Assembly (NCBI GenBank): GCA_052035095.1
Contig: JBPOHW010000008.1
Span: 3,060-67,059 of the forward strand
Source of the DNA: Candidatus Moraniibacteriota bacterium
Lineage (GTDB): Bacteria > Patescibacteriota > Minisyncoccia > Moranbacterales > UBA1568
Reading direction: 5' to 3'
Length of the DNA: 64,000 bases
The notes below the pieces were generated by a model, which saw nothing but the letters and a program-made list of their open reading frames with translations, searched no databases and was not told where the DNA came from. Below, in pieces: positions 7,915 to 63,499 of this stretch (within the stretch, counting starts at the first letter, position 1; each line of letters opens with the position of its first letter). Made by a program: the position numbers and the translations under genes.

Positions 7915-8025
7915 CCATCATAAGTCGCTCCATCCGTTCCTGCAAAACTTTCAGCCCATTGCCACATTCAAGCCAGTTTGAGAGAATACGAAGGAAGAAA
8001 TCGTTCCCATGTGTACTCCCCTGTT
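7915..8025 (+). repeat. about 95 bp intergenic repeat, copy 1 of 3
   Basis: Core CAGCCCATTGCCACATTCRAGCCAKTTTGAGAGAATACG..GG.AGAAAT.GT.CCCATG.GTAC shared with the copies near 9655 and 12185. Confidence 0.8.
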
Positions 8026-8178
8026 TCAGTAGTTGAAAAAGGATGCAGGACTTTTTCTATTTCCAAAGCAACTCAAAAAATAACTTATACACCGCGCATC
8101 ATAAAGCCGGACAGAATAAACTTCCCGTCCTTTTACTTGAAGCAAATTCTTTGTTTGAAAAGTTCGCTTTCATAATGT

Positions 8179-8535
8179 TTGCGGTATAGTCAAACTTTTA
8201 TGGAGAAGAAAACTTTTATTGTAGGCTCAGTGCTATTGGTTACGATGGCAGTGCTTTTTGACGGCTTTATGAGCACAGCATACCTATTAGGAAGTTTCGT
8301 CTTATGTTGGGCAGTTTATTATGGAGTTAGATATACAGGGTTAACTCGAGCAAAGAGTATTAATCCAAAACAAATAGTTCACATGGCGCTTGCAACTTCA
8401 ATCCTGATTCTGACAGGTATCACATTTATTTTCGGAACAGGAATCAACTTAATTGTCTATGCCGTCTGGCTCGTCTTCTTCTATTGGCACGAGTTGTCTT
8501 CCTTGAAACTAAAAAAAACTGCTTTGATTGAATAG
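8179..8535 (+). CDS. small integral membrane protein
   Basis: 118 aa with three or four hydrophobic helices; no known motif. Confidence 0.45.
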   Translation: MRYSQTFMEKKTFIVGSVLLVTMAVLFDGFMSTAYLLGSFVLCWAVYYGVRYTGLTRAKSINPKQIVHMALATSILILTGITFIFGTGINLIVYAVWLVFFYWHELSSLKLKKTALIE

Positions 8536-8635
8536 TTTTTTACTTCATTGACATCAAATGATTCTTCATCTTTTTTGGATTATTGATTTATAAATGTGGA
8601 ATCGAGACACAATTATACTTTGAAATGAGGACATT

Positions 8636-9205
8636 ATGATTGATACTACTCTTTACATTTTTGTTATTTATCCACTGGGCATCTTCATAGGCTTCGCCTC
8701 TTTTACGATGATATGGATGCCTATTCTAATTGGGATACCAATGGCCACCTACTGGTCATTGAAAGGGTGTGTACGATATAGAAGCATATTCTCCTATATA
8801 CCAAGTATTATATTTGGTTTTGTTTTATTCACACTTATTGGCTTTTTCTTTTTGAGAATTCTTCCTGCAATTGGAGAGAACAATGGATTTTATGTGGCGC
8901 AAATAATCGGCAGTCTATTTGCACTATTTTATTGCTTAAAGAAAATGGGCAGGCGTGATGTTCAACTTGATTTTTGGACGAAAATGTTGAAGAACAAATA
9001 CATGATCTACGAACACCCTATAATTGCCGAGAAGCTTCAGTTTTTATTCGAAGAAAGATTCGGAGAAGATGCCAAAAAAATGGCTACTCAACTTATGATG
9101 GAAACGAAAGCGAAGAGAATTGATGAGCTTATAGAAAAAAGAGAAGCGTTAAAAAAGCAGATTCTTGAAAAAGTTGAAAAAAAGAAGCAAGACGGCGAAT
9201 GGTAA
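8636..9205 (+). CDS. integral membrane protein with charged C-terminal tail
   Basis: 189 aa. Four TM helices followed by a KE-rich tail. Overlaps the next gene by 7 nt. Confidence 0.45.
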   Translation: MIDTTLYIFVIYPLGIFIGFASFTMIWMPILIGIPMATYWSLKGCVRYRSIFSYIPSIIFGFVLFTLIGFFFLRILPAIGENNGFYVAQIIGSLFALFYCLKKMGRRDVQLDFWTKMLKNKYMIYEHPIIAEKLQFLFEERFGEDAKKMATQLMMETKAKRIDELIEKREALKKQILEKVEKKKQDGEW

Positions 9206-16697: not shown

Positions 16698-17309
16698 CTA
16701 TTTAATCTTTGCCAATGTCTCTAAAACGCTTTTAATCTGCTGATCACTGACTTTTGCATCTTCCATAGCACTCAAGAGGCTACCGAGCTGTTGTTCATTA
16801 ATTTTGACGTTGTTCGAGGTATTTAGAATCTGCTCTAGTTGATTGTTATCAATCTTTACGTCGTTTCGAACTTCTATGTCCTGTGTAGTTAATACAGGAA
16901 TCAAAATAGCAAGAACCGAAATTGCTATTGCTATAAACGCTGAAATTTTTGCATCCTTAGCATTTTTCCGTGCAAGTCTCAGTTCCTGATAGTCAATAAA
17001 ATTAAAATGGGACTCCAGACTTATGACATATTTATTTCTCCCGTCGGCGTAGTTGTTGTAGTCGAGGATATAAAGAGCCAAAAAGAGTGTGTCTGGATTT
17101 ACTGGCCCAGCACCAGTAACACCGATGCTGTAATGGTTCTTATGAGCGATCTGTAAGTAGGTTTTAAGAACGTCTTTTTCTCTATCGCTCAAGGACAGTT
17201 CTGTGGCTTCTGTAACCTCTGAAACACTAAACCCTTGAGGATGATTTAGTCCCCATTTAATAGCTCTGATAAGAAAGCTTTCACCAATATTTTCTTCACT
17301 AGATGGCAT
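16698..17309 (-). CDS. hypothetical protein with C-terminal TM helix and coiled-coil tail
   Basis: 203 aa, AT-rich. Sits 9 bp downstream of the OLD-family nuclease gene, probably co-transcribed. Confidence 0.5.
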   Translation of the reverse strand: MPSSEENIGESFLIRAIKWGLNHPQGFSVSEVTEATELSLSDREKDVLKTYLQIAHKNHYSIGVTGAGPVNPDTLFLALYILDYNNYADGRNKYVISLESHFNFIDYQELRLARKNAKDAKISAFIAIAISVLAILIPVLTTQDIEVRNDVKIDNNQLEQILNTSNNVKINEQQLGSLLSAMEDAKVSDQQIKSVLETLAKIK

Positions 17310-17318
17310 AGTAGCAAC

Positions 17319-19151
17319 TTAAAATCTCTCCAATAACTTAGTGAAAAGTGTTCCTACATTGGTAGTTGTTGTGCTACTTAAGTTTATCTGACTACTATCC
17401 TTCTGGCATTCTTCCAGAAACTTCTTGGCAAGCAATACTTTATCTAGCTTACTTTTTTTGATATACGTGGAATTAGATTCAGCGTAAGACTTACTTTCGT
17501 CTTTGAGTACGAATTTCTTAAAGTCTTCTAGTGAAAAAACATCTTCTATACTTCCCTCAGATTCTAATACAGCCAAAATTAAATCCTTAGTTACTAACCA
17601 AGTATCTTTCAAATTTCTCTCCCCATCTCTTTTCCCCTGATCTTTATCGTATAGGTATAAAACTTTTGTACCCCAGCCATGCAGGATAGTTCCAACGAAA
17701 GGCATATTCCCAGCTCCGCCACCAAAGATAAAGTTTAACTTATTTTCATTCATCAGTTTTTTAAATGCGTTTAAGTAATAAAGATCTGATGGACCTTCGA
17801 CTACTACGTTATTAACTTTATCCAAGGAAGCAACACCGGAGTTTAATTCTAGACCTATAGCCGTCAGGATGGGGGTTAATGTTTCTTTGTCTGCTAAAGC
17901 ATGAACTTTATTTTCAATTTTTGTGCCAGACTTTTTTGTTCGATGGATTAGTCTAATCTGATTTAGTTTATCTGCTTCCAAAAGATAGGGTGAGTGTGTA
18001 GAGAATACTAACTGCACTTCCTCTGCCGAGGCCTCAAGTTTTCTTAAAATATCCTCCTGTGCTTTTGCGTGTAGAAATAATCCAGGCTCATCTATCAAGA
18101 TGATATTTGGAACATCCTCACTTGCACGTGCAGACACTTTAATATAAAAGGCTAGATGCCACTGCCGTCCCTTACTCCTCAAGCTTGGTTCATACAAATG
18201 CCCGTCTTCTTCAACCCAAAAGTAAACATCTTCTGAATCCCAATCTACGCTTAAGTTAGTAATGTCTTGAGTCCAGAATTTCTCGTAGTCTTTATTTATT
18301 TTGATGTTCAAATCCTTCTTGTGTTTTTGTTTATCACGGGCTTGAGAATTTTTGATTGTATCTACGTCTAGGTTGCTTATGACTGCTAAATCTTGAACCC
18401 ATTTGTTAGTTTCAAGCTCTGCAAACGGTATTTTATTTGGAAAAACATCTTCAAATGAATTAAAGAATACAAAATTTGGTATCCATTTTTTGAGAGCTTC
18501 TAAGAATTTGGTCTCTGAATTAATTAATTTTTCAGCACCATCCATATCTCCGCCGATCTCCGATAATAATTTCAAAAAAATACCACCATCTTTTTCATCT
18601 ATCTGCGCAACATTAGGTGAGGTAGCAGTTTGAAATGTGTTAAATAAGGCCTTACTATTTTCAAAATTAGAAAATTCAAAATCAAACAAAGTCCCTCCTA
18701 ATTGCGTATGCTTTACATGTAGTCCTTTTATTTTGTCCCACTTATTTATGATTGATTTCTCCAGTCTCTCCAAATCATTTTTTCCAAAAATATCATCCTC
18801 TAGAGTTTCTTTCCCGAACCTATAACTATCTGGAAAAGTCTTAATAACCTCGAGCTCGATATTTTTAGTAGCCTTCTTTGTACTAGCTATTTTTTCTAGT
18901 ATATTTTTGAGAATAGATGCCTCAACTACAAAAGTTACGGAAATTTCTGGTATTGCCTCAGGTGTTTTTATTGGAATAGCAGATTCTCTAATTTTCTTTT
19001 CCGTATCAAAATCTTCTAAAGCCTCGAGAATTGAGGTTTTACCTGATTCATTTTTTCCAGCAAGGATCGTAACTGTATCAGTTAGATAACAATCGCCACT
19101 GTCGGTTATGGATTTAAAATTCTTAATCCGAAATTTCTTAAGCTTTAGCAT
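17319..19151 (-). CDS. OLD-family / PARIS-like ABC-ATPase plus TOPRIM nuclease
   Basis: N-terminal ABC ATPase (Walker A AGKNESGKTS; ILIDEPGLFLH Walker B/D-loop). C-terminal TOPRIM (VVVEGPSDLYYL, FGGGAGN, LYLYDKD = DxD). 610 aa, AT-rich. Confidence 0.8.
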   Translation of the reverse strand: MLKLKKFRIKNFKSITDSGDCYLTDTVTILAGKNESGKTSILEALEDFDTEKKIRESAIPIKTPEAIPEISVTFVVEASILKNILEKIASTKKATKNIELEVIKTFPDSYRFGKETLEDDIFGKNDLERLEKSIINKWDKIKGLHVKHTQLGGTLFDFEFSNFENSKALFNTFQTATSPNVAQIDEKDGGIFLKLLSEIGGDMDGAEKLINSETKFLEALKKWIPNFVFFNSFEDVFPNKIPFAELETNKWVQDLAVISNLDVDTIKNSQARDKQKHKKDLNIKINKDYEKFWTQDITNLSVDWDSEDVYFWVEEDGHLYEPSLRSKGRQWHLAFYIKVSARASEDVPNIILIDEPGLFLHAKAQEDILRKLEASAEEVQLVFSTHSPYLLEADKLNQIRLIHRTKKSGTKIENKVHALADKETLTPILTAIGLELNSGVASLDKVNNVVVEGPSDLYYLNAFKKLMNENKLNFIFGGGAGNMPFVGTILHGWGTKVLYLYDKDQGKRDGERNLKDTWLVTKDLILAVLESEGSIEDVFSLEDFKKFVLKDESKSYAESNSTYIKKSKLDKVLLAKKFLEECQKDSSQINLSSTTTTNVGTLFTKLLERF

Positions 19152-19345
19152 ATCTATCCTTTATTAAACTCTTATTAGCATCCTGATCAGCTAGCTTCTT
19201 TGAAGAAAAAAATAAGTAAATCCAGCAAGGCTATCCAGCCACATTCCCATTTCTTCTTTACCTGCTTTGACCCCGCAGTTTTTCTCAAAGTATTCCTGGC
19301 CTCTCTTAATCAATCCCTCGGAAAACTTTTGAGCTGACATAAGGA

Positions 19346-50761: not shown

Positions 50762-52501
<1,740 letters not shown>

Positions 52502-52515
52502 TTAGGGTTTACGTA

Positions 52516-52542
52516 TTAGCACTCTCAAACTATGACTGCTAA
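52516..52542. promoter_or_regulatory. CIRCE (HrcA) operator
   Basis: TTAGCACTC, 9 nt spacer, GACTGCTAA; this matches the TTAGCACTC-N9-GAGTGCTAA consensus on the groEL strand. Confidence 0.8.
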
Positions 52543-52547
52543 GTCTG

Positions 52548-52576
52548 ATTGTAAGCAAAGAAAAATCGGGTGTCAA
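52548..52576 (-). promoter_or_regulatory. sigma70 promoter for groEL (TTGACA, 17 nt spacer, TACAAT)
   Basis: Read on the minus strand: TTGACAcccgatttttctttgctTACAAT, just upstream of CIRCE. Confidence 0.7.
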
Positions 52577-52581
52577 GACCC

Positions 52582-52609
52582 AAAAAAAGGATTTCCCGAA
52601 GGAAATCCT
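52582..52609 (-). terminator. rho-independent terminator (AGGATTTCC-cgaa-GGAAATCCT plus T7)
   Basis: 9-bp perfect stem and T-run on the minus strand, downstream of the 52646-53053 gene. Confidence 0.7.
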
Positions 52610-52645
52610 AAAAAAACACTATCTGATTTATCGACACTTAGAGAA

Positions 52646-53053
52646 TCACGCTCCGGGAAAAAGCTCCCAGAGAATTGTATCTTTCTCAGATGCCCAAGTT
52701 ATTGAATCGTCCAGAGACGATCGTGGCATTACCTTGGGATAACACCAACAGTTACCCGGACACGGTAACTCCAGCTTTGGCGCCAAGAAGGTTACAACTT
52801 CTTGTATCCACTGATTGATCGACTTCTCTTCTCCGTACAGCCCATGCCTACGCCGGTAGTTGTAACACCAAGACGAAAAAGATGGGTTGTCAAGGATAGT
52901 ACACCGGAGGAATTCATCAGGAGACTGCACTCTTTCCATATGAGAGAGTGCTTCGCCGTAAACGAAAATTTTCTGGACATCTTCCAACCTGACGCACCCC
53001 AACATAATATCCCCTAGGCAAGACGAGAGTTCTAAACCGATTTTTTTCGCCAT
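52646..53053 (-). CDS. hypothetical protein (AT-rich, Cys/Trp-rich)
   Basis: About 135 aa ORF ending at the terminator; no motif. AT-rich unlike its neighbours. Confidence 0.35.
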   Translation of the reverse strand: MAKKIGLELSSCLGDIMLGCVRLEDVQKIFVYGEALSHMERVQSPDEFLRCTILDNPSFSSWCYNYRRRHGLYGEEKSINQWIQEVVTFLAPKLELPCPGNCWCYPKVMPRSSLDDSITWASEKDTILWELFPGA

Positions 53054-53120
53054 CGAAATCTCCTCATTCAACAAAAAGTACTGACGAAAAATTATCACAC
53101 TTTCTCAAAAAATGCAAGCC

Positions 53121-54170
53121 TCACACCCGGAAGACCATCACATCACCATCTTGCACGACATACTCTTTTCCTTCGAGGCGAAGCGTGCCTTTTTCGCGCG
53201 CGGCGCTCCACGAGCCCGCCAAGAGGAGCACTTCCCAGTTAATCACTTCGGCGCGGATGAAGCGATCCTTGAAGTCCGTATGAATGGCGGCTCCAGCTTC
53301 CGGAGCAGTCGAGCCTCGGCGAATCGTCCACCCGCGCGTTTCCGTTTCGCCGGTCGTGAAAAACGTCATGAGTCCCAAAAGCGAATACGTCTCGCGGATA
53401 AGATCGTTGATGCGCGATGAAATCCCAAACTCAGCTTGCTCGTCCGCGCTCATCGAAAACAATTCTTCTTCGATTTTCACATCAAGCCGCACATGGGGAC
53501 GTGCGGCGAGTTCCGGCGGAAGCGCCGCCTCCGGATCGGACATATTGTAGACGAAGAGGAACGGCTTCGCCGTCAAAAGTTGGAGTTCGCGAAACACACG
53601 TTTCGAATCTTCACTTTCCGCTATTCCCGCTTCCCTCGCGAGTTTCCCCGCCTGAAGCGCCGACTCAATCGTCTCGAGTATCGGCATCTCGGCAAGCGCG
53701 TCTTTTTTCCCGGCACGCGCGTCTTTCACGGTTTTGAGTTTCCGCTTCTCGATCGTTTCCAAGTCCGCCAAGATAAGCTCGGTATGAATGATATCGATAT
53801 CTTCCTCGGGTGCCACCCGATCGTGGACGTGAATGATATTGGGATTTTCGAAAAGTCGCACGACCTCGATGATCGCGTCCGCCTCGCGAATATTCGCGAG
53901 GAATTTGTTGCCAAGCCCTTCGCCCTTGGACGCGCCGGCAACCAAGCCCGCGATATCGACAAACTCCACGACCGCCGGAACAATCTTTGCCGACTTTGAC
54001 ATCGCCGCAAGCTTGCCGAGTCGCACATCCGGCACCGGCACGACACCAACATTGGGCTCGATCGTGCAAAAGGGATAGTTGTTGATATCCACCGCCTTCC
54101 CCGAAAGCGCCTTGAACAACGTGGACTTCCCCACATTCGGCAGTCCAACAATACCGGCTTTGAGAGACAT
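53121..54170 (-). CDS. ychF: ribosome-binding ATPase YchF (Obg-family)
   Basis: [23 protein letters not shown]1 motif; NxxE ATPase specificity; C-terminal TGS domain ([11 protein letters not shown]). Confidence 0.9.
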
Positions 54171-54181
54171 AAAGCTTTGCT

Positions 54182-54231
54182 GCTGTCAGCTATCCTGCCT
54201 ACCGGCAGGCAGACGGCATTCAGCTGTCAGC
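54182..54231. mobile_element. miniature palindromic insert (CCTGCCTACCGGCAGGCAG) flanked by 9-bp direct repeats GCTGTCAGC
   Basis: 32 bp between perfect 9-bp direct repeats at 54182-54190 and 54223-54231. The palindrome is 18/20 identical to the one inside the tRNA D-loop at 20017-20036. Confidence 0.5.
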
Positions 54232-54381
54232 ATTTAGAAAAGAAAAAGATTCCACTTGCTGTATGCTAGCGGAATCATAGTGACATGTCCATCATCCCAA
54301 AAATCAGGAAAAGTTAAAAGGCACCCAATCGTAATTGGATGCCCTTGGTATTACCCATCTCAGCGAACTTCAGCGAGCGAC

Positions 54382-54633
54382 TTAGCCCTTGGTGCCGCTC
54401 GGCTTCAGGAACTCCAGTGTATCGCCGGGCCGGAGGACATAGACCCCCTGAACATTGTCTCCGGAGATGATCGCCTGAGCATCCGGCGGAATATTGAGGA
54501 CTTCCCCGAAATCCCGACGGATGTCATTCACCGTCCTACCGGCAACGGCGGCCTCCTGCGTATTGGCACCGCACACCAGTTTCACACTTCCGATAGGCTT
54601 CGTTGTGTCAACAGCCATAAAACCCTCCTGCAA
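54382..54633 (-). CDS. ubiquitin-like beta-grasp protein with C-terminal Gly (BilA/Ubl-like)
   Basis: 83 aa ending in ...KPSGTKG then stop; last gene of the E2-JAB-E1 operon. Confidence 0.55.
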   Translation of the reverse strand: MQEGFMAVDTTKPIGSVKLVCGANTQEAAVAGRTVNDIRRDFGEVLNIPPDAQAIISGDNVQGVYVLRPGDTLEFLKPSGTKG

Positions 54634-54676
54634 CTTGACTGTAAAAAAAGAAACAAATCAGTCGGAACATCCCCGA

Positions 54677-55351
54677 CTACCTCCGAACAACCGCGCGGCA
54701 GTTATTCCCTACAATACAAGCATACACCTCATCATATGTCAAGTATCCTTGACTCGACGCCCAAAAGGCATTCAGCATCAGCGCGGCGATCGTAAAGTTG
54801 GTGGGAATAATTTGCGGTTCAGCCGCAACTTGTTCTCCGCATCCAACTTCATGGGGACTCCTATCCTTCGGCCTTTGAATTTCAGGATGGAATCTATTTG
54901 CCAAAGGAAGCGTCATATCCACTCTATCTTTCCGCACATACACTTGAATATTGCCATCCGTATACTCATTTCCTCCAGAGATAAGTACCACGGAATCCAG
55001 ATCCCGACAGAAGTCAGACACAAGCTTCCTTGTTTTGTGATTATCTACGCACAAGAGAATCGTGTCTCCATCCTCAAGAAGATACTCTATCGAGTCCGGT
55101 GCTACAAATTCCCCGTATGCACGAATCGAAATTTCCGGAAATTCTTTCTTGAGTCTTTCTGCCGCAACCTCAGCCTTATTCCCAATCCGGTCGAATAACT
55201 GACGATCGCGGTTTCGAGGCTCATACCTATCGCCATCAATCACCGTAAGAACGACATCCTCGTCGCCTCCACTGTAATTCAGATACAGGGCGAGCGGCTG
55301 AAGAAGCCAGCTACCAATACCCCCCGCGCCAACAACCTTTATTTTCTTCAC
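54677..55351 (-). CDS. E1-like ThiF/MoeB-family activating enzyme
   Basis: KIKVVGAGGIGSW Rossmann GxGxxG, Asp-rich region DGDRYEPRNRDRQ, Cys in LLCVDNH. Confidence 0.7.
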   Translation of the reverse strand: MKKIKVVGAGGIGSWLLQPLALYLNYSGGDEDVVLTVIDGDRYEPRNRDRQLFDRIGNKAEVAAERLKKEFPEISIRAYGEFVAPDSIEYLLEDGDTILLCVDNHKTRKLVSDFCRDLDSVVLISGGNEYTDGNIQVYVRKDRVDMTLPLANRFHPEIQRPKDRSPHEVGCGEQVAAEPQIIPTNFTIAALMLNAFWASSQGYLTYDEVYACIVGNNCRAVVRR

Positions 55352-55362
55352 GCTATCACCTC

Positions 55363-56268
55363 TCAGAGTTGAACTTCCCCATTAATCAGGTCTCCCTTTC
55401 CGTTAGACGGAGAGGGCACCTCCTTGGAAACCCTTTCCATCCACACTTTCGGGAATGGATAATTCCGATAGTCCTTACCTTCGGGAAATACAAGGTCAAA
55501 GAACTGCTGACGGTACAAATATTGTCCGTATCGCTCTTTCGGAATCCATGGCTCATCCGGACCAAGAATCATATCGTCCAGCCAATTCTTCAACCTTCCC
55601 GCAACAGAACATTGGTCGCCATACCCTTCGCGACTCACGCCAAGTGGACGACGATATCCGCGCGAGCTCTTCGTGGGAACAGTATACTCCACTTCCTTTA
55701 TGCCGGAGATTATATCGCCGGGATTCATTGGGAAGCGATTGTTATTAACCGCGATAGAGCCGATCACCATGAAATACGGTTGATCAACCCTACCAATGGT
55801 AATGTGTATACCGTCAAGGTGTTGCTCGTCATGAATATCCACACCAGAATGAAACGCCCCGAAATTCGCATGGGAGTGGATAGTGCCAACCAATTGCAAT
55901 CCCTCATCCACCCGCCCCCGACTTTGATACGAAACCGAAGTTCCGGTTACTCGTTGAAGGGGAGCATCCAGTACATAGGCGCCATTCCGAGCATCATAGT
56001 ACAACAACACCGCAGCCTCAGCTGCATATTCCTCATACACCCGACGGAAGAACAAGACCACTGGCGCCACGACAAATGACGGGATCTTTGGAACACGAAG
56101 CGTTACCCTCGTATCCACTTCCCCCAAAAAGGAAATGCCATCCACCTTTACCATCGCCCGCACCAGACCAGTATCCTTGCTCAAGTAAATACCTCCTCGA
56201 GCAATAACATAGTATGTCCCTGCTTGCGGCAATGACACCTGACCATCCAAAACATAGATCGGAAACAT
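55363..56268 (-). CDS. JAB/MPN (JAMM) metalloprotease, deubiquitinase-like
   Basis: JAMM motif HSHANFGAFHSGVD (HxHx7Sx2D). Confidence 0.75.
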   Translation of the reverse strand: MFPIYVLDGQVSLPQAGTYYVIARGGIYLSKDTGLVRAMVKVDGISFLGEVDTRVTLRVPKIPSFVVAPVVLFFRRVYEEYAAEAAVLLYYDARNGAYVLDAPLQRVTGTSVSYQSRGRVDEGLQLVGTIHSHANFGAFHSGVDIHDEQHLDGIHITIGRVDQPYFMVIGSIAVNNNRFPMNPGDIISGIKEVEYTVPTKSSRGYRRPLGVSREGYGDQCSVAGRLKNWLDDMILGPDEPWIPKERYGQYLYRQQFFDLVFPEGKDYRNYPFPKVWMERVSKEVPSPSNGKGDLINGEVQL

Positions 56269-56270
56269 AT

Positions 56271-56990
56271 CTAGCTCCTCGCATTCAATTGACGTTTCAA
56301 TTCATCGGGTCCAACCATCCGCCAAAGAAGGACTTCTTCGGAGAGCTGTGCAAATTCCCCCTCCAGGATTGACCGAAACACCTCGGATACCACTTTTTGA
56401 AAGGTTGCCATAGTATTCGCGTCGACACGCATCGCGTCAAACGAGTCTTCGGTCAAGCGAAACAACTCTTCAATAAAACCACGCTCACACTTTTCGAGCA
56501 ATTCAGCCGCCACGTGCGAGTGTCTTCTCTCCACCCGAAGAGTACTCATTGTCTTCATAAGCGCTCCCTGCAACCCTTCCATCCCTTGAGAAAAAGCTCT
56601 CTCGAGACACCTTGAGATTGCAATCTCCATGCCCTCCTCTTCGAAGTCGGCAATTTCCCGCGCGATCACACGTCTAAGCGTCACATGGGAACTTACCCAC
56701 TGAAGATTGAGCATGAACGAAGGATCTTTCCTTGATTCTACCTCCCACCGATCAAAACTTGAGAGAGCAGGCTCTCTCTCCTGATACATTTCATATCCCC
56801 CTCTCAAGTCCGTATTAAACTGACTCTCCCAGAAATACCCAACAATCTCACTCGCACGAGCAAATATCCCACGTTCAGCATGTCTCGAAAACCCGAGACA
56901 CACCCGACCATCCCCGTCAATATTGGGCAAGTTAGCTCGGAAAAACCGATCCTCCAATGAAAACCACCGGCGATAGCCGGTGGTTTTCAT
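56271..56990 (-). CDS. E2-like ubiquitin-conjugating (UBC-fold) protein
   Basis: ANLPNIDGDGRVCLGF corresponds to the eukaryotic E2 HPNI-x3-G-x-ICL catalytic-Cys motif. Confidence 0.65.
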   Translation of the reverse strand: MKTTGYRRWFSLEDRFFRANLPNIDGDGRVCLGFSRHAERGIFARASEIVGYFWESQFNTDLRGGYEMYQEREPALSSFDRWEVESRKDPSFMLNLQWVSSHVTLRRVIAREIADFEEEGMEIAISRCLERAFSQGMEGLQGALMKTMSTLRVERRHSHVAAELLEKCERGFIEELFRLTEDSFDAMRVDANTMATFQKVVSEVFRSILEGEFAQLSEEVLLWRMVGPDELKRQLNARS

Positions 56991-57115
56991 TTAAACAACA
57001 CCACTGCATCAAGGGAACATGCCATCCCCGAAATGCATCGTATCACTCTTACATAAACCGGAATAGATGTCAAGGATCACTTCATCAGTAGTACAATCAA
57101 TATTCAATCCGCGAG

Positions 57116-57195
57116 ACCGCCTTCCCCGAAAGCGCCTTGAACAAGGTGGACTTCCCCACATTCGGCAACCCGACAATACCGGCTTTGAGAGACAT
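57116..57195 (-). pseudogene. duplicated 5' fragment of ychF (first 27 codons, 76/80 identical)
   Basis: ATGTCTCTCAAAGCCGGTATTGTCGGGTTGCCGAATGTGGGGAAGTCCACC... has 4 mismatches versus 54091-54170. The frame is not continued. Confidence 0.85.
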
Positions 57196-57202
57196 AAAAA
57201 GT

Positions 57203-58948
57203 TTATTTCAAAGACCCACCCCATTCAACTACGGTAAATCCTTTCCGATCCGGAGTATGAATCTCGAATGGCTTCACTGAAATTTTTTCGTCAAGCCCTC
57301 GGTATCGCATGAAAACTCTCACAACACTCTCCGGCTTCGGAACGACGTGAAGCGGAGCCATCTCATCAATCACTCCCTTCGGAAGAAACGTGATGAAATA
57401 ATACGGCTTGTTTTCGTTGAGCATTCTCGAAACCCAGAACTCCTTGAAATCTCTCGATTCCTGTGCGCTCAAACCAAGTTTCGCGAGTGTTTCATCAAAG
57501 AAGCTGTCAAGGTTCGCCTTTTCAATGACAAACCCCGACTCATCGGACAGATATGACGAGTGCGCATTCCCTTCCCAGAAAAGATACGGGTATCGCTTTC
57601 CATCTGAAGCGTTGGTGAGCTGTCCATCGGGACGCGCCATCACATTCCAGCCGCTTCCGTACAAAGGGTCGGAAAATGTCAAACCGTCATTCGGTTCGAC
57701 ACGCACAGAAACATTTTCGGTTTTTTCGGGATAGAGGTAAATAACCGGCTTGCCGCATCCACCCGCGATAACATAGCTGTCATTGACAAACTTCATGAGA
57801 TTTCCAAGGGGATCCCTCCAGAAAAAGACAAGATGCTTCCCATTTACAAAATCATCATAGGCAGTATCTTTTTGAAAAAAATTCGAGTCCCCAAAACTGG
57901 AAACACTATCCATATTCTCTTTATACCAATCCTTGAGATACTGGGTATTTTTGTCTTTGTACTCATAAATGGCATCGCCGTACATCGTCTTCCCTGCCAA
58001 TACGAGATCGTCGGTCGTGACGACATCATCGGCAACGGGACCAGACGAACCGCATCCGCCGCCAGGATATATCCGCCTAAAAGTATCCGCGGATTTCCAC
58101 CCGTCACTCCATGTTATTTGAGGAACATCATTTTTCAAAAAATCAGGGATGAGAGCATACTGAACTTCCGTTCCGTATGGGGATCGAAAGGAAATTGTTT
58201 CAGTACCGTCTGACGGAACATTTAAGAAAGCCGGACCGAATATCGGATCGACATGGGCAAGAGTCAAATTTCGTTTGTCTGTTTTTGGATCGAAAAAAGC
58301 TTCGTCAGAACTGGCGAGAGAGACGCTTTGAAGTTCAAAAATCGCCCCTCTAAATGTTACATAGCCCGGATAATCCAAAGAATGTATCGTTTTATTATCA
58401 AAAGATTCAGCTAGAGCAACAACAGTATCACGATTATCGAGACCAAACAACTTAAAAAAATCTCCCGAGGAATAAAGCATGTACTGTTCGTAGCGGACCT
58501 GCTCATTGGGCGTTCCTCGATTCCATACACTTTTCGAAAAAAGAAAATACGGAACTCCTCCGGGACCACTGTTTGGATCATCAAAAACAAGAAAAATTAT
58601 AGTATCCCCATTTGAATTACTGCCAACCTCCCATGCCTTCATATTGGAACGTGCCACATCCCCGTCCGAGCCCTTCTGAAAAAACTCTGGCGTCTCAATC
58701 GGCTTTCTCTCGACATACCACTGTATGGTTCCGTCGTCGAGCGCGAACCCGGCTCTCGCGGGGGATGCCACATCCGATGTTCCCTTCGCAAACTCCGCCT
58801 TTTGTGGCGCAATCAGTACCGGTTGTTTTTGGAATTGTGAAATACCAAAAAGAACTTTCCGGCTCGCGAGAAAAAATGAGACCGACACCACAGCGGACAC
58901 AAGGGCAAAAGCGCAAATCGCTATACCGAACTTAATTTGTTTGGACAT
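57203..58948 (-). CDS. membrane-anchored extracytoplasmic hypothetical protein
   Basis: 581 aa; N-terminal TM anchor [23 protein letters not shown]; Gly/Asp/Tyr-rich ectodomain with two GGCG motifs; no known domain. Confidence 0.55.
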
Positions 58949-58991
58949 ACTTCATCATAAGAAAGTTACACAACTACAGTATACACCACTT

Positions 58992-59038
58992 GACTTCCCC
59001 GCATTCGGCAACCCAACAATACCAGCTTTGAGAGACAT
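58992..59038 (-). pseudogene. second duplicated 5' fragment of ychF (47 bp, 4 mismatches)
   Basis: ATGTCTCTCAAAGCTGGTATTGTTGGGTTGCCGAATGCGGGGAAGTC shares the CAACCC variant with fragment A rather than with the intact gene. Confidence 0.8.
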
Positions 59039-59063
59039 AGAAATAAAATCGAAAAACTGAAAT

Positions 59064-59357
59064 TTAGAAACTCAGAAAATCATTAACGCGTCTAAGAACG
59101 AGAACATATAACCCTGTAAACATTAACCAAATGAGAGCCTGTAGGAAGATTTTACTCTTCATAAAATCGGTCTTGTTTATCATCTCAAAAACTTTAGCAA
59201 AAGAACCAAAAATAAAGGTGGCGAGAGATATCTTTAGAGCCAATTCATTGACAGACCAAATGGATATTAAAAATCCAAAACCGCCAAAGATTCGAAAACC
59301 TCTCCCTATATTGAGAGTTTTTAAAACTTCATCAACCTTACCAAGATTAAGATCCAT
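59064..59357 (-). CDS. small membrane protein (AT-rich)
   Basis: 97 aa, two TM helices; local AT content is much higher than in flanking DNA. Confidence 0.35.
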   Translation of the reverse strand: MDLNLGKVDEVLKTLNIGRGFRIFGGFGFLISIWSVNELALKISLATFIFGSFAKVFEMINKTDFMKSKIFLQALIWLMFTGLYVLVLRRVNDFLSF

Positions 59358-60245: not shown

Positions 60246-60782
60246 TCATTGTAAACTTCGCACCCTATACAAACACCATGCCGACAGAAAGCGGCTGTTT
60301 TCCACGTCACCCTTTCGGATCATGGTTTCGATTTCCTCTTCCGTGAACCAAAAGCTCTCGATCGCGCCTTCTTCTTCCGGATCGGGCGGAAGCGACTCCT
60401 CCTTCAAGTCTTCGCCGACAAAAACATACATCCGCCCCTTGGATCGGCGATGATCATAGTAGTAGTCACCGATCACCGTGAGCCTCCCCGCGCGATAGCC
60501 CGCTTCTTCCATCAGTTCACGGTTGGCGCCCACATCAACACTCTCGTCCGGCAAGAGGAGCCCGCCCGGGAGCTGATAGATGTGTTCGTTGGGCGGATAG
60601 GAATACTCGCGCTGAACGAGGATTTTGCCGTCGGTTCGGCGACAAATCACCGTCGCGCCATCAACCGCGTGCTTGGTATGAAGGTAGGTTGAACGAGTCC
60701 CATTGGGAAGCTCAACCTCGTCTTCGAGGAGCGTCACCTTGGGATGCATAAATACCTCTTTCGAGGAGAGTTTTTTCCACAT
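60246..60782 (-). CDS. NUDIX hydrolase (ADP-ribose pyrophosphatase-like)
   Basis: Canonical Nudix box GGLLLPDESVDVGANRELMEEAGY (GX5EX7REUXEEXGU). Confidence 0.8.
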   Translation of the reverse strand: MWKKLSSKEVFMHPKVTLLEDEVELPNGTRSTYLHTKHAVDGATVICRRTDGKILVQREYSYPPNEHIYQLPGGLLLPDESVDVGANRELMEEAGYRAGRLTVIGDYYYDHRRSKGRMYVFVGEDLKEESLPPDPEEEGAIESFWFTEEEIETMIRKGDVENSRFLSAWCLYRVRSLQ

Positions 60783-60953: not shown

Positions 60954-62291
60954 ATGAATCCCTCTATCTTCAAGGCCTACGATATCCGAGGCGTGTACGG
61001 GCAAGATTTCGACGAAGGCGACGCCTACAAGATTGGTCGAGCGACGGTTGAAGTATTGAAACTCAAAACAATCGCCCTCGGACGCGATGCGCGCGTATCA
61101 AGTCCGGCTCTTTTTGAAGCATTTGCGAAGGGCGCAAGAGAAAGCGGTGCCGACGTGATTGATTTGGGACTCCTCACGACACCGATGGTGTACTTTGCCT
61201 CGTGGACGCTCGACGTCGATGCCGCCGTCTCCATCACCGCCTCCCACAATCCGCCCGAGTACAATGGCATGAAGATTGCTCTCAAAAACGCGCTCCCCGT
61301 CGGGGAAAAGAGCGGACTCTTTGAGATTCGAGACCGCGTGATCGCGGGAACATTTGAAAATTCCGGAACAATGGGAACACTTTCGACACAAGATATCAAG
61401 CCCGCATACTACGATCACTTTTCAACATTCGCAAAACTCGGAGACAAAACATTCAAAGTGGTGATCGATACGGCAAACGCGATGGGCATCCTCGAACTTC
61501 CGATTTTCAAAATGTTCCCGAAGAATATCAAACTTGTCACGATGTATGACGACCTCGACCATCCCTTCTCGACGCACGAGGCGAATCCCCTCAAAACAGA
61601 AACGCTCGACGAGCTCCGCGAGCGCGTCATCGCCGAGCACGCCGACCTCGGTATCGCCTTCGACGGCGACGCGGACCGTGTCGGCTTTGTGGACGAAACG
61701 GGCGCGATCATTCCGATGGACCATATGACCGGCATCATCGCCAAGGAAGTGTTGAAATCACATCCGGGCGCGACTATTCTCTATGATCTCCGCTCTTCGA
61801 AAGCCGTGAAAGAGGTGATCGAAGAAGCGGGCGGGATCGCCAAGGAATGCAAGGTGGGACACGCCAATATCAAACAACAAATGCGCGATGACCAAGCGGT
61901 CTTTGCCGGCGAGCTCTCGGGTCACTACTATTTCCTCGAAAATTCCTACGCCGAAGCGGGGTCGCTCGCGGCGCTCATGATCCTCTCCGTGATGAGCGAA
62001 ACCGGACAAACTTCCTCCCAACTCGCGCACGATCTCAAGCGCTACGCGCACTCGGGAGAAATAAACAGCGAAGTCGAAAACAAAGACGAGGTACTGCAAA
62101 GGCTGGAACAAGAATATGCCGACGGAAACATTTCCCATCTCGACGGCGTGAAAATAGATTTCCCCGACTGGTGGTTCAATGTCCGCCCCTCCAACACCGA
62201 GCCACTCCTCCGCCTCAACCTCGAAGCCAACACGGAAGCGCTCATGATCGAGAAACGAGGCGAGGTGCTCGGGATTATACGGAAAAAATGA
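60954..62291 (+). CDS. phosphoglucomutase/phosphomannomutase-family enzyme
   Basis: Active-site loop TASHNPPEYNGMK; metal-binding FDGDADR; sugar-binding GELSGHYYF. Confidence 0.85.
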   Translation: MNPSIFKAYDIRGVYGQDFDEGDAYKIGRATVEVLKLKTIALGRDARVSSPALFEAFAKGARESGADVIDLGLLTTPMVYFASWTLDVDAAVSITASHNPPEYNGMKIALKNALPVGEKSGLFEIRDRVIAGTFENSGTMGTLSTQDIKPAYYDHFSTFAKLGDKTFKVVIDTANAMGILELPIFKMFPKNIKLVTMYDDLDHPFSTHEANPLKTETLDELRERVIAEHADLGIAFDGDADRVGFVDETGAIIPMDHMTGIIAKEVLKSHPGATILYDLRSSKAVKEVIEEAGGIAKECKVGHANIKQQMRDDQAVFAGELSGHYYFLENSYAEAGSLAALMILSVMSETGQTSSQLAHDLKRYAHSGEINSEVENKDEVLQRLEQEYADGNISHLDGVKIDFPDWWFNVRPSNTEPLLRLNLEANTEALMIEKRGEVLGIIRKK

Positions 62292-62713: not shown

Positions 62714-63127
62714 ATGAATCCGATTTCAAAACGGCAAGAACTAACTATGGAGAAAGAAATTATTGCGCGACTTCATAAGAATTTTGAGGAATACGCTCAC
62801 CGAGAAGGCGATGTGGAATTTTGGTATGCGCGGGAACTTCAGCAACTTCTTGGATACGATAAGTGGAGTAATTTTGAGGGAGTTATAGAGAAAGCAAGAA
62901 CTGCCTGCGAAACCGCCAAACAAAAGGCTTCAGACCATTTTGCCGACGTCGGCAAAATGGTTGATCTTGGCTCCGGAAGCAAGCGAGAAATTCAGGACAT
63001 CATGCTCACTCGTTACGCGTGCTATCTCATCGCGCAAAACGGCGACCCTCGAAAGGACGAGATCGCGTTCGCGATGACCTATTTCGCCATTCAGACCAGA
63101 AAGCAAGAAATACGCTTCGAATATTGA
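62714..63127 (+). CDS. DinD-like Bro-N domain protein, N-terminal half only (137 aa)
   Basis: SDHFADVGKMVDLGSGSKREIQDIMLTRYACYLIAQNGDPRKDEIAFAMTYFAIQTRKQE closely matches the conserved core of E. coli DinD, but the ORF stops at about half the usual length. Confidence 0.6.
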   Translation: MNPISKRQELTMEKEIIARLHKNFEEYAHREGDVEFWYARELQQLLGYDKWSNFEGVIEKARTACETAKQKASDHFADVGKMVDLGSGSKREIQDIMLTRYACYLIAQNGDPRKDEIAFAMTYFAIQTRKQEIRFEY

Positions 63128-63208: not shown

Positions 63209-63499
63209 TTACGCGTTAGTCGAATCGATTTTCAATCCATTGGCTCGAAGCGAAAGACTTTTAAAAAGCGCCTCTAAGTGAGAAAAATCTTTATAGGATT
63301 CAATGAAAGGTATCCATCCCCCGGATGTTAAGGAGAAAATTTCTATCCGGAAAAGAGCTCTCCCTCCTTGTGCATCAGGAACAAGGGAAATAGTTCCCTT
63401 CACAAATGCCCCCAAAAATGGCCCTCGACATGTCACAACTCCAAACGAACCCGCACCAGATGCATCTTGAGTTTTCCACTCTATAACATCGCTAGACAT
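63209..63499 (-). CDS. hypothetical protein
   Basis: 96 aa ORF, no motif. Confidence 0.25.
   Translation of the reverse strand: MSSDVIEWKTQDASGAGSFGVVTCRGPFLGAFVKGTISLVPDAQGGRALFRIEIFSLTSGGWIPFIESYKDFSHLEALFKSLSLRANGLKIDSTNA

Follow-up and report, generated by a model that had tools for sequence, protein, structure and literature searches.

What kind of system do the ubiquitin-like genes beside ychF encode in a Candidatus Moraniibacteriota genome, and how did they come to lie next to truncated copies of the start of that gene? The question is raised by a 64-kb stretch of contig JBPOHW010000008.1 (hereafter the window, the whole stretch of DNA that was analysed), in which four genes, for an E2, a JAB/JAMM metallopeptidase, a ThiF/E1 protein and a ubiquitin-like protein (Ubl), precede ychF, and two stumps of the ychF 5' end lie further upstream. 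An earlier note on this DNA took the genes for a four-gene operon of the antiviral Bil/Bub kind, inserted by two successive site-specific integrations. We consider it probable that the operon is a decayed ubiquitin-like operon and that the ychF stumps were left by events resembling homology-facilitated illegitimate recombination (HFIR). The system is not intact, as the E2 gene lacks some 475 N-terminal codons; and near-identity with an operon-free haplotype of the same species ends abruptly where a ychF stump ends, beyond which ychF itself is divergent along its whole length.

Coordinates are positions in the window; the operon, ychF, the stumps and the flanks to groEL read on the minus strand. 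The loci used for comparison are an operon-bearing sister species (L083), same-species contigs without the operon (L095-L097, of which L095 is 168 kb long), the closest species (L003-L006) and two short-read contigs (L001, from Logan, and L098). The features of the locus are:

50762-52438, minus strand: groEL
52646-53098, minus strand: 150-aa open reading frame (ORF) with no family or PDB match and, by gene content, no counterpart in L095
53121-54170, minus strand: intact ychF, 349 aa (Pfam YchF-GTPase_C and MMR_HSR1)
54171-54381, minus strand: spacer between Ubl and ychF with the ychF leader, containing two terminator-like hairpins (54346-54317 and about 54276-54243)
54382-54633, minus strand: Ubl ORF; from its ATG, 54382-54618 (78 aa)
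54677-55351, minus strand: ThiF/E1, 224 aa, single domain (Pfam ThiF, 1.2e-24)
55363-56268, minus strand: JAB/JAMM metallopeptidase, 301 aa (Pfam match to Prok-JAB, 2.6e-6)
56271-56990, minus strand: "E2" ORF, 239 aa, containing PNIDGDGRVCL; remnant proper 56271-56960
56956-56991: perfect palindrome (inverted repeat I2) with 16-nt arms and a 4-nt loop
56991-57074, minus strand: operon promoter/5' region (CTTGACATCT...), 80% identical to L083 3758-3841
57075-57114, minus strand: 40-nt spacer between stump 2 and the operon promoter
57115-57198, minus strand: ychF stump 2, ATG at 57195, 81 nt coding
57203-58948, minus strand: P581, a 581-aa ORF, membrane-anchored according to the earlier note, with no match in Pfam, NCBIfam, PHROGs, PADLOC or PDB
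58990-59041, minus strand: ychF stump 3, about 49 nt coding
59064-59357, minus strand: P97, 97 aa, within the block near-identical to L095
59378-60214, minus strand: Bro-N/PDC-S13 protein, 278 aa, also within that block (PADLOC PDC-S13, 3.1e-112; Pfam Bro-N; PHROG 15286)
60246-60782, minus strand: Nudix hydrolase
60954-62291, divergent: phosphomannomutase (PMM)

The ychF repeats and the haplotypes of the locus

A repeat finder returned a single family, with the ychF start and three upstream bases (54091-54173) as the reference. The second copy (57116-57198) matches it at 79/83 positions (95%) and the third (58959-59041) is similar over its last ~50 nt only (58992-59041); an 83-nt match of 95% within 6.5 kb cannot be due to chance. 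Our recounts agreed with the earlier note, which had given 76 of 80 identical positions for the first 80 bp of ychF at 57116-57195 and 43 of 47 for the more decayed copy at 58992-59038, had placed the 581-aa gene between the two fragments, and had pointed to a variant common to both fragments that the intact gene lacks (GGGTTG versus GGACTG on the coding strand). All four differences between the second copy and intact ychF are synonymous, indicating that both copies diverged while they were working genes. In-situ tandem duplication followed by decay is ruled out, since all inter-copy differences are synonymous. In each of 80 other ychF loci of Moraniibacteriota the 5' end of the gene occurs only once; a conserved regulatory leader, which had been set down beforehand as the finding that would speak against insertion, is thus ruled out as well.

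The comparison with same-species contigs locates the boundary of stump 2 to the base. The exact P581 protein is encoded on 11 contigs. In L095, L096 and L097 the locus reads PMM (divergent)-Nudix-BroN-P97-[stump 3]-P581-ychF-groEL, with neither the operon nor the 150-aa gene, and P581 lies 8 nt upstream of a complete ychF. Window positions 60828-57115 correspond to L095 6121-9834 with 6 mismatches over 3714 nt (99.84% identity). This near-identity stops exactly at 57115, which is ychF nucleotide 81, and the two sequences part after GGCGGTC, so that an abrupt, illegitimate joint is placed at 57115/57114. Stump 2 is identical to the ychF 5' end of L095 and L097 at 81/81 positions. The complete ychF of the window has 90.2% DNA identity to that of L095, with 104 mismatches spread along the whole gene and, at the codon level, 74 synonymous and 12 nonsynonymous differences. 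In the mismatch profile the divergent block (51200-53120 and onward) also includes the 150-aa gene and ~1.2 kb of groEL; this first ~1.2 kb of groEL is ~4% (4.3%) diverged from L095, with near-identity back at about 51.1-51.2 kb and continuing through 51040-49040.

Between these two co-specific genomes, near-identical tracts (61500-57115 and 51040-49040, at most 0.2% divergence) are set within a background of 3.5-6.3%. The sequence of the locus indicates that homologous exchange around it would have been both frequent and recent.

The order PMM (divergent)-[variable]-ychF-[variable]-groEL holds in 80 related species, the gap between PMM and ychF ranging from ~0.1 to 7 kb. In the closest species (L003-L006) the arrangement is Nudix-(P97)-ychF, and ubiquitin-like genes are absent. 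Stump 3 lies where ychF starts in L004 (P97-ychF): window 59315-58990 matches L004 3990-4312, the match ending at ychF nucleotide 49. The Bro-N gene lies between Nudix and P97 in the window and L095 and is not found in L004. As stump 3 is also present in L095-L098, it represents the older scar, and its end point (about nucleotide 49) differs from that of stump 2 (nucleotide 81). In L083 the operon occupies the same slot between Nudix and ychF with no ychF 5' repeat, and a 142-nt ychF 3' stump, with an open frame and 79% identical to the 3' end of L083's own ychF, adjoins groEL; a 57-nt ychF 3' stump is found in L025. Between ychF and groEL of L083 (9265-12059) we also observed a cassette resembling a diversity-generating retroelement (a 233-aa ORF, bAvd and an RVT_1 reverse transcriptase), followed by the 142-nt 3' stump. 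In the window, a 17-nt inverted match (16/17) connects the spacer/promoter region after stump 2 (57070-57086) with the 3' coding region of ychF (53256-53272); ~0.06 such matches are expected by chance in the region (a rough estimate), and it may mean nothing.

The ychF repeats look like recombination scars and not like att sites. HFIR combines one homologous anchor with one illegitimate joint (PMC3240628), and in sequential displacement one event after another leaves truncated gene pieces nested and cargo stacked, as at the type VI secretion effector-immunity loci of V. cholerae and the orphan 3' ends of Rhs and contact-dependent inhibition genes (PMC5361080). Like these cases, the window has one homologous junction, one abrupt non-homologous joint and stacked truncated pieces; identity is regained by degrees, in groEL at one end and in PMM at the other, the pattern by which HFIR is recognised, and a pre-event haplotype can be identified. 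It differs from them in that the scarred gene is the housekeeping GTPase ychF of an uncultivated bacterium of the Candidate Phyla Radiation (CPR), and in that stumps of either end of ychF occur, depending on the species. Here the pre-event haplotype lies within the species and the breakpoints are exact, and it is from comparing haplotypes that we infer the mechanism and its direction. The events would have been exchanges between alternative haplotypes of the variable PMM/Nudix-ychF-groEL locus, in which one end of the exchanged DNA paired homologously in a conserved flank and the other was joined illegitimately, at ychF nucleotide 81 for stump 2 and, in an earlier event, at about nucleotide 49 for stump 3.

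The truncated E2 gene and its operon partners

Gene calls agree with the earlier note that four co-directional genes lie upstream of ychF, on the minus strand. The first of them is a fragment. From its residue 11 onward, the "E2" ORF corresponds to residues 476-704 of a 704-aa protein in L083, with 74% identity over 229 aa (BLASTP). In full-length homologues the Prok-E2_D and PRTRC_B models align from about residue 440-500, and the conserved core, as seen in representative clusters, spans residues ~400-575; a remnant that starts at residue 476 thus begins in the middle of the E2-like domain. It keeps the PN...VCL active-site loop, invariant in the E2 core of homologues, and the C-terminal helical domain. 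The full-length protein was modelled with AlphaFold2 (AF2) from a 4-sequence alignment at a pLDDT of 43.5, and was left out of the fold search. In this low-confidence model all beta-strands of the E2 domain fall at residues 407-469, that is, in the lost part, and long N-terminal helices extend over ~200 residues (DSSP), the sole basis for a membrane anchor. The full-length E2-domain proteins of CPR bacteria (~700-780 aa) are accordingly described here as having a predicted helical, hydrophobic and putatively membrane-anchored N-terminus.

The site of the loss is visible in the alignment with L083. Window 57074-56991 matches L083 3758-3841, after which L083 3842-5308 (1467 nt) has no equivalent in the window, and the deletion site is filled by the palindrome at 56956-56991, which holds the ATG of the remnant ORF. 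The palindrome is predicted to fold into a hairpin of -30 kcal/mol (fold z-score -5.35) in which this ATG is buried. As a dispersed repeat element it was ruled out, being unique in the window, and no other pieces of the E2 gene were found in the 64 kb. A 1.47-kb deletion, sealed by the palindrome, removed the N-terminal, putatively membrane-bound part of the protein and the first half of the E2 domain. The ratio of nonsynonymous to synonymous substitution rates (dN/dS) between the window and L083 is 0.22 for the remnant, suggesting that the deletion is recent relative to the split from L083.

The other three genes are full length with intact motifs, and their dN/dS values against L083 are low (JAB 0.15, ThiF 0.21, Ubl 0.10). 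In the E1, residues G8/G10/G11/G13 (GxGGxG), R50, D103 and C171 are invariant or near-invariant in 68 homologues, C171 being present in 100%. It consists of a lone ThiF domain that aligns at residues 3-142, and its E1 matches in PDB span one adenylation domain. The JAB protein has an intact catalytic motif (HSHANFGAFHSGVD), with E84, H131, H133, S141 and D144 invariant in 39 sequences, and has an N-terminal alpha+beta domain and a C-terminal extension besides. Its AF2 model (pLDDT 82) has as top PDB match 8tyx_B, from a complex of Bil Ubl and deubiquitinase (DUB) (E 5.8e-6, 17% identity), a match barely ahead of Rpn11 and Sst2; the model supports a putative Ubl-specific JAMM peptidase, and nothing narrower. 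The Ubl, 90% identical to that of L083, is a beta-grasp candidate with the C-terminus ...LEFLKPSGTKG. The pattern LEF[IV]K.[AS]G.KG is conserved at the Ubl end in more than 60 homologous operons, where it is either terminal or followed by 1-5 further residues, as expected if a JAMM peptidase matures the Ubl. Tails with 1-5 residues past G-x-K-G (e.g. ...SGSKGSDK) were seen among L086:7452-7679, L106, L141, L146 and L158, whereas others stop at the Gly.

From the invariant GxGGxG, R50, D103 and C171 of the E1 and the PN...VCL of the E2, adenylation followed by two thioester steps is predicted. In the intact form of the system, the JAMM peptidase would trim the Ubl to its terminal Gly; the single-domain E1 would adenylate it and probably hold it on the invariant Cys171; the Ubl would then pass to the invariant Cys of the E2 domain (Cys496), probably at the membrane, and from there to targets; and the JAB protein would reverse the conjugation. 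In the window, this cascade is most likely broken at the E2 step.

Direction of the proposed exchange and competing explanations

In the direction that we favour, the operon would already have been resident between Nudix and ychF, as in L083, and an incoming fragment of the P581 type would have been stacked upstream of it, with its anchor in PMM/Nudix and its other end 81 nt inside its own ychF. We lean towards the P581-type fragment as the newcomer because the joint is 40 nt ahead of the operon promoter, at the point where an L083-like recipient would run out of Nudix homology; because all four stumps are short terminal pieces of ychF, as expected when a tract ends with too little homology; and because the divergence of the block (4-10%) overlaps the background. 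Exact-protein look-ups with ychF, ThiF and the 150/135-aa ORF returned the same strain only and yielded no haplotype of the window lineage with the operon and without P581.

Some points weigh against the reading given here, in its recombination part and in its operon part alike. The near-identical right flank (51040-49040) fits the import of an operon block into a P581-type locus better, and the donor of either block was not found. The link from P581 through the stump to the operon is seen on the source contig alone, as L001 starts inside stump 2 and L098 ends at 57115. The remnant retains its active-site Cys and an open frame, so residual function is possible. The 704-aa model is poor, which leaves HMM alignments and predicted secondary structure as the basis for the fold of the lost part. 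Finally, a literature search found no experimental work on any member of the operon family.

The reverse direction of the same kind of event is possible but doubtful. Here a P581-type recipient, as L095, would have taken up a fragment [operon-ychF-150-aa gene-groEL 5'] that was anchored in groEL and joined at nucleotide 81 of the resident ychF, making the operon the newcomer. Near-identical flanks on both sides of the block (61500-57115 and 51040-49040) are what a single import would leave, the ychF divergence of 9.8% exceeds the background of 3.5-6.3%, and synonymous divergence (dS) from L083 is lower in the operon genes (0.47-0.65) than in core genes (0.92-1.12), which hints at a later transfer. 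However, the donor fragment would have to start, by coincidence, within ~40 nt of the end of Nudix in the L083 arrangement, two independent events would each have had to place the joint among the first 81 of the gene's 1050 nt, and the joint would sit in a stretch homologous to the donor's own ychF; moreover, the divergence of the groEL part (4.3%) equals the background.

We find the site-specific integrations proposed in the earlier note very unlikely. In that scenario the insertions would be small elements without an integrase, mobilised in trans and arrayed much as tandem islands or tycheposons are, each of which brought a replacement 5' end of ychF. What stands of the proposal is an insertion polymorphism inside the species with a nested, two-step history; what does not stand is the site-specific mechanism. 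Nested direct repeats of the ychF 5' end do flank discrete cargo, and the synonymous differences between copies are those expected for xenologous 5' ends. However, integration at the 5' end would leave ychF unchanged past a core site, whereas the divergence shows no such stop and runs through the whole gene (10%), the 150-aa gene and 1.2 kb of groEL. The stumps have unequal end points (about 49 and 81 nt) and no common crossover point; in L083 the same operon with its promoter adjoins Nudix, and ychF is not repeated; 5' repeats occur in 0/80 other ychF loci; and stumps of the 3' end, which a 5'-specific att site does not explain, occur too. As the earlier note had remarked, there is no integrase: the ORFs between 52.6 and 60.8 kb yielded no recombinase domain.

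An assembly artefact, that is, a chimeric join of two co-occurring strains through the common k-mers of the ychF 5' end, appears highly improbable. The start of L001 inside stump 2 and the end of L098 exactly at 57115 are the behaviour of a graph branch point between coexisting haplotypes. The joint itself (ychF nucleotide 81, then unique spacer and promoter) is non-repeat sequence that a k-mer join cannot make, so some genome must hold a stump identical to the L095-type ychF next to the operon. In addition, L001 independently has stump-operon-ychF-150-aa gene-groEL, and the window contig resembles L095 on either side of the block.

We give least credence to the idea that the four genes form a functional antiviral defence system of the Bil type: the structural match of the JAB model to 8tyx_B, the neighbouring gene that matches the PADLOC candidate PDC-S13, and the patchy distribution and variable locus speak for it, but the E2 is truncated, the 8tyx_B match (17% identity) is scarcely ahead of Rpn11 or Sst2, the IAD-AAD-CYS architecture by which BilD is defined is missing from the E1, homologous operons lie beside ribosomal, polA and kinase genes and not in defence islands, and PADLOC-DB 2.0.0 (whether this release includes Bil models was not confirmed) gave no match for E2, JAB or Ubl and only weak "E1-E2" matches of the Cap2 type, at most 29 bits, for ThiF.

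Other features of the window bear on its host and on variable DNA around the locus. Placement by ychF relatives assigns the host to Candidatus Moraniibacteriota, in the CPR/Patescibacteria lineage, in agreement with the CPR-like genome suspected in the earlier note; the pili suspected there are borne out too, by type IV pilus genes in the window (a PilC-like T2SSF protein and a PilX_N protein). These genes count in favour of the proposed recombination, for which natural transformation may have supplied the DNA. Ahead of ychF, the hairpin at 54346-54317 was picked out by a terminator scan. Window 54276-54243, and 54241 onward, match the operon-free L005, and the 54276-54243 hairpin is also present in L083; this hairpin and the ychF leader are core sequence common to species without the operon. 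A small conserved ORF (MS.VIEWKT.DA...GGWIPFI...) lies outside the locus at 63209-63499 and recurs in L005 (4141-4436), where its insertion separates the terminator hairpin from the ychF leader; we read it as another mobile piece. A second Bro-N ORF (137 aa, 62714-63127) adjoins a DUF7768 gene. Low-GC stretches at 17000-19200 and 8000-9000 (0.35-0.37 versus ~0.5) may be further islands, and the former contains a 610-aa AAA_15/AAA_21 ATPase (17319-19151). ATPases of this kind are frequent in defence or toxin-antitoxin modules.

The operon family, its place among known systems and its meaning

The operon belongs to a widespread family. JAB homologues form 56 clusters, mostly from Patescibacteria, and always occur in the order [704-783-aa protein]-JAB-ThiF-Ubl (70-98 aa), for example in L083, L086, L088, L090 and L094. 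An alignment-based scan reached the family at 426 metagenome loci (a scan with a single JAB protein gave nothing); the gene order is kept in the 80 loci inspected, and in 0 of these 80 is the operon next to ychF or the E2 gene truncated as in the window. The E2-domain protein is represented by 1125 clusters at E <= 1e-3 in a search of 1.84 billion representatives. A search with the 239-aa "E2" ORF returned the query alone, and JAB homologues with their gene neighbourhoods served as the way into the family. Contigs resembling large phages carry some of the relatives. Two distant relatives (L092:5357-11677 and L093:3169-10221) combine an 863-877-aa E2-domain protein and a 398-418-aa JAB with two ThiF proteins and a Rho_N-domain protein in which the Ubl probably resides; on their contigs, which have the look of large phages, the genes of a multisubunit RNA polymerase are split, and a NUMOD3 endonuclease, SMC and numerous ORFans are encoded.

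The best or longest-coverage NCBIfam matches of JAB, E2 and E1 are PRTRC_A (TIGR03735), PRTRC_B (TIGR03737) and PRTRC_ThiF (TIGR03736), all of them below the curated cut-offs (47.9 of 101.8, 14.8 of 131.45 and 49.1 of 144.75 bits, respectively); JAB aligns with PRTRC_A at 1.1e-12 over profile positions 22-178 of 192. The "E2" ORF has a sub-threshold Pfam match to Prok-E2_D. Sequence searches of PDB with the operon proteins returned generic E1 adenylation domains and Rpn11 only. The nearest class described so far, 6d of Iyer, Burroughs and Aravind (2006), joins a Ubl and an E1 to a JAB that bears an additional N-terminal alpha+beta domain and to an E2 without the classical His (PMC1779556). From the species list we infer that PRTRC is this operon class 6d, which neither source states. 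Like PRTRC, for which three of the four operon proteins have their best-scoring families, the operon encodes a Ubl, a JAB, a single-domain E1 and an E2-like protein in separate genes (order E2-JAB-ThiF), with the extra N-terminal alpha+beta domain in JAB and no classical His before the PN motif of the E2. Unlike PRTRC, it scores far below the cut-offs, carries its E2 domain inside a ~700-780-aa protein, and is hosted by CPR bacteria and phage-like contigs instead of proteobacterial integrative and conjugative elements or plasmids; ParB, PRTRC_C, PRTRC_D and PRTRC_E had no NCBIfam match among the Ubl and neighbouring ORFs of the window and four homologous loci. The operon is a degenerate member of a PRTRC/6d-like family, a CPR-type variant with the E2 embedded in a large protein.

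Of the earlier assignment to Bil or Bub, the gene content (E2, JAB, E1 and Ubl) stands, but the identity with either does not, given the lack of a family match and the different architecture. With Bil the operon shares separate Ubl, E2, JAB and E1 genes, Cys-based chemistry, and a JAB model structurally nearest to the Bil complex 8tyx_B. The BilD E1 has the architecture IAD-AAD-CYS (PMC11601596), whereas the operon E1 is one 224-aa adenylation domain; there is no sequence-family match to Bil, nor a stand-alone complete E2 (BilB), the E2 domain being part of a large protein whose N-terminus is predicted to be hydrophobic and of which the window ORF represents residues 476-704 of 704. Bub operons are marked by DUF6527/BubE, by fusions of Ubl with E2 and of JAB with E1 (type I) or of E2 with E1 (type II), and by a Cys-less E1 and E2 with Ser/Tyr oxyester chemistry (PMC11601596). 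The window resembles Bub (6E/DUF6527) as a ubiquitination-like operon with Ubl, E1, E2 and, as sometimes in Bub, JAB; it differs in its unfused genes and in the invariant Cys of E1 and E2, and no ORF between 52.6 and 60.8 kb had a Pfam match to DUF6527/BubE. Type II CBASS (Cap2/Cap3) differs in that the window has no CD-NTase, unfused E1 and E2, and weak Cap2 matches. Sulfur transfer of the ThiS/MoaD type, the outcome that the earlier note had named as contrary to its reading, can be set aside: MoeB, ThiF and UbaA models score 42-58 bits against the E1, with NCBIfam cut-offs of 159-450, SAMP models are likewise far under theirs, no thi or moa genes were found among the neighbours of the operon, and the partners of the E1 are a JAMM peptidase and an E2 domain.

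For the intact relatives we offer a tentative proposal, one that we would not yet call likely: they may constitute a distinct class of Cys-dependent Ubl conjugation system, neither Bil, Bub, CBASS nor canonical PRTRC, made up of a ~700-940-aa protein with an E2-like core (its N-terminus, in CPR bacteria, predicted to be hydrophobic), a JAB, an E1 reduced to a single domain and a Ubl that has a G-x-K-G tail, widespread in CPR and also present on large phage-like contigs. Such a system might tag proteins at the cell envelope, for example in phage entry or episymbiotic contact.

The locus calls for caution in annotation, because what appears to be a complete Bil-like set is a gutted E2 with partners of another family, and because direct repeats of a gene start are not proof of an integrase. 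Within a population of an uncultivated CPR bacterium, it exemplifies stacking through one-sided illegitimate recombination, with both haplotypes known and breakpoints resolved to the base, and so bears on how accessory genes are gained in tiny, integrase-poor genomes. It also points to a sizeable family of Ubl operons in which the E2 is part of a large protein, and whose Ubl homologues with and without tail residues form a natural test set for JAB-dependent maturation.

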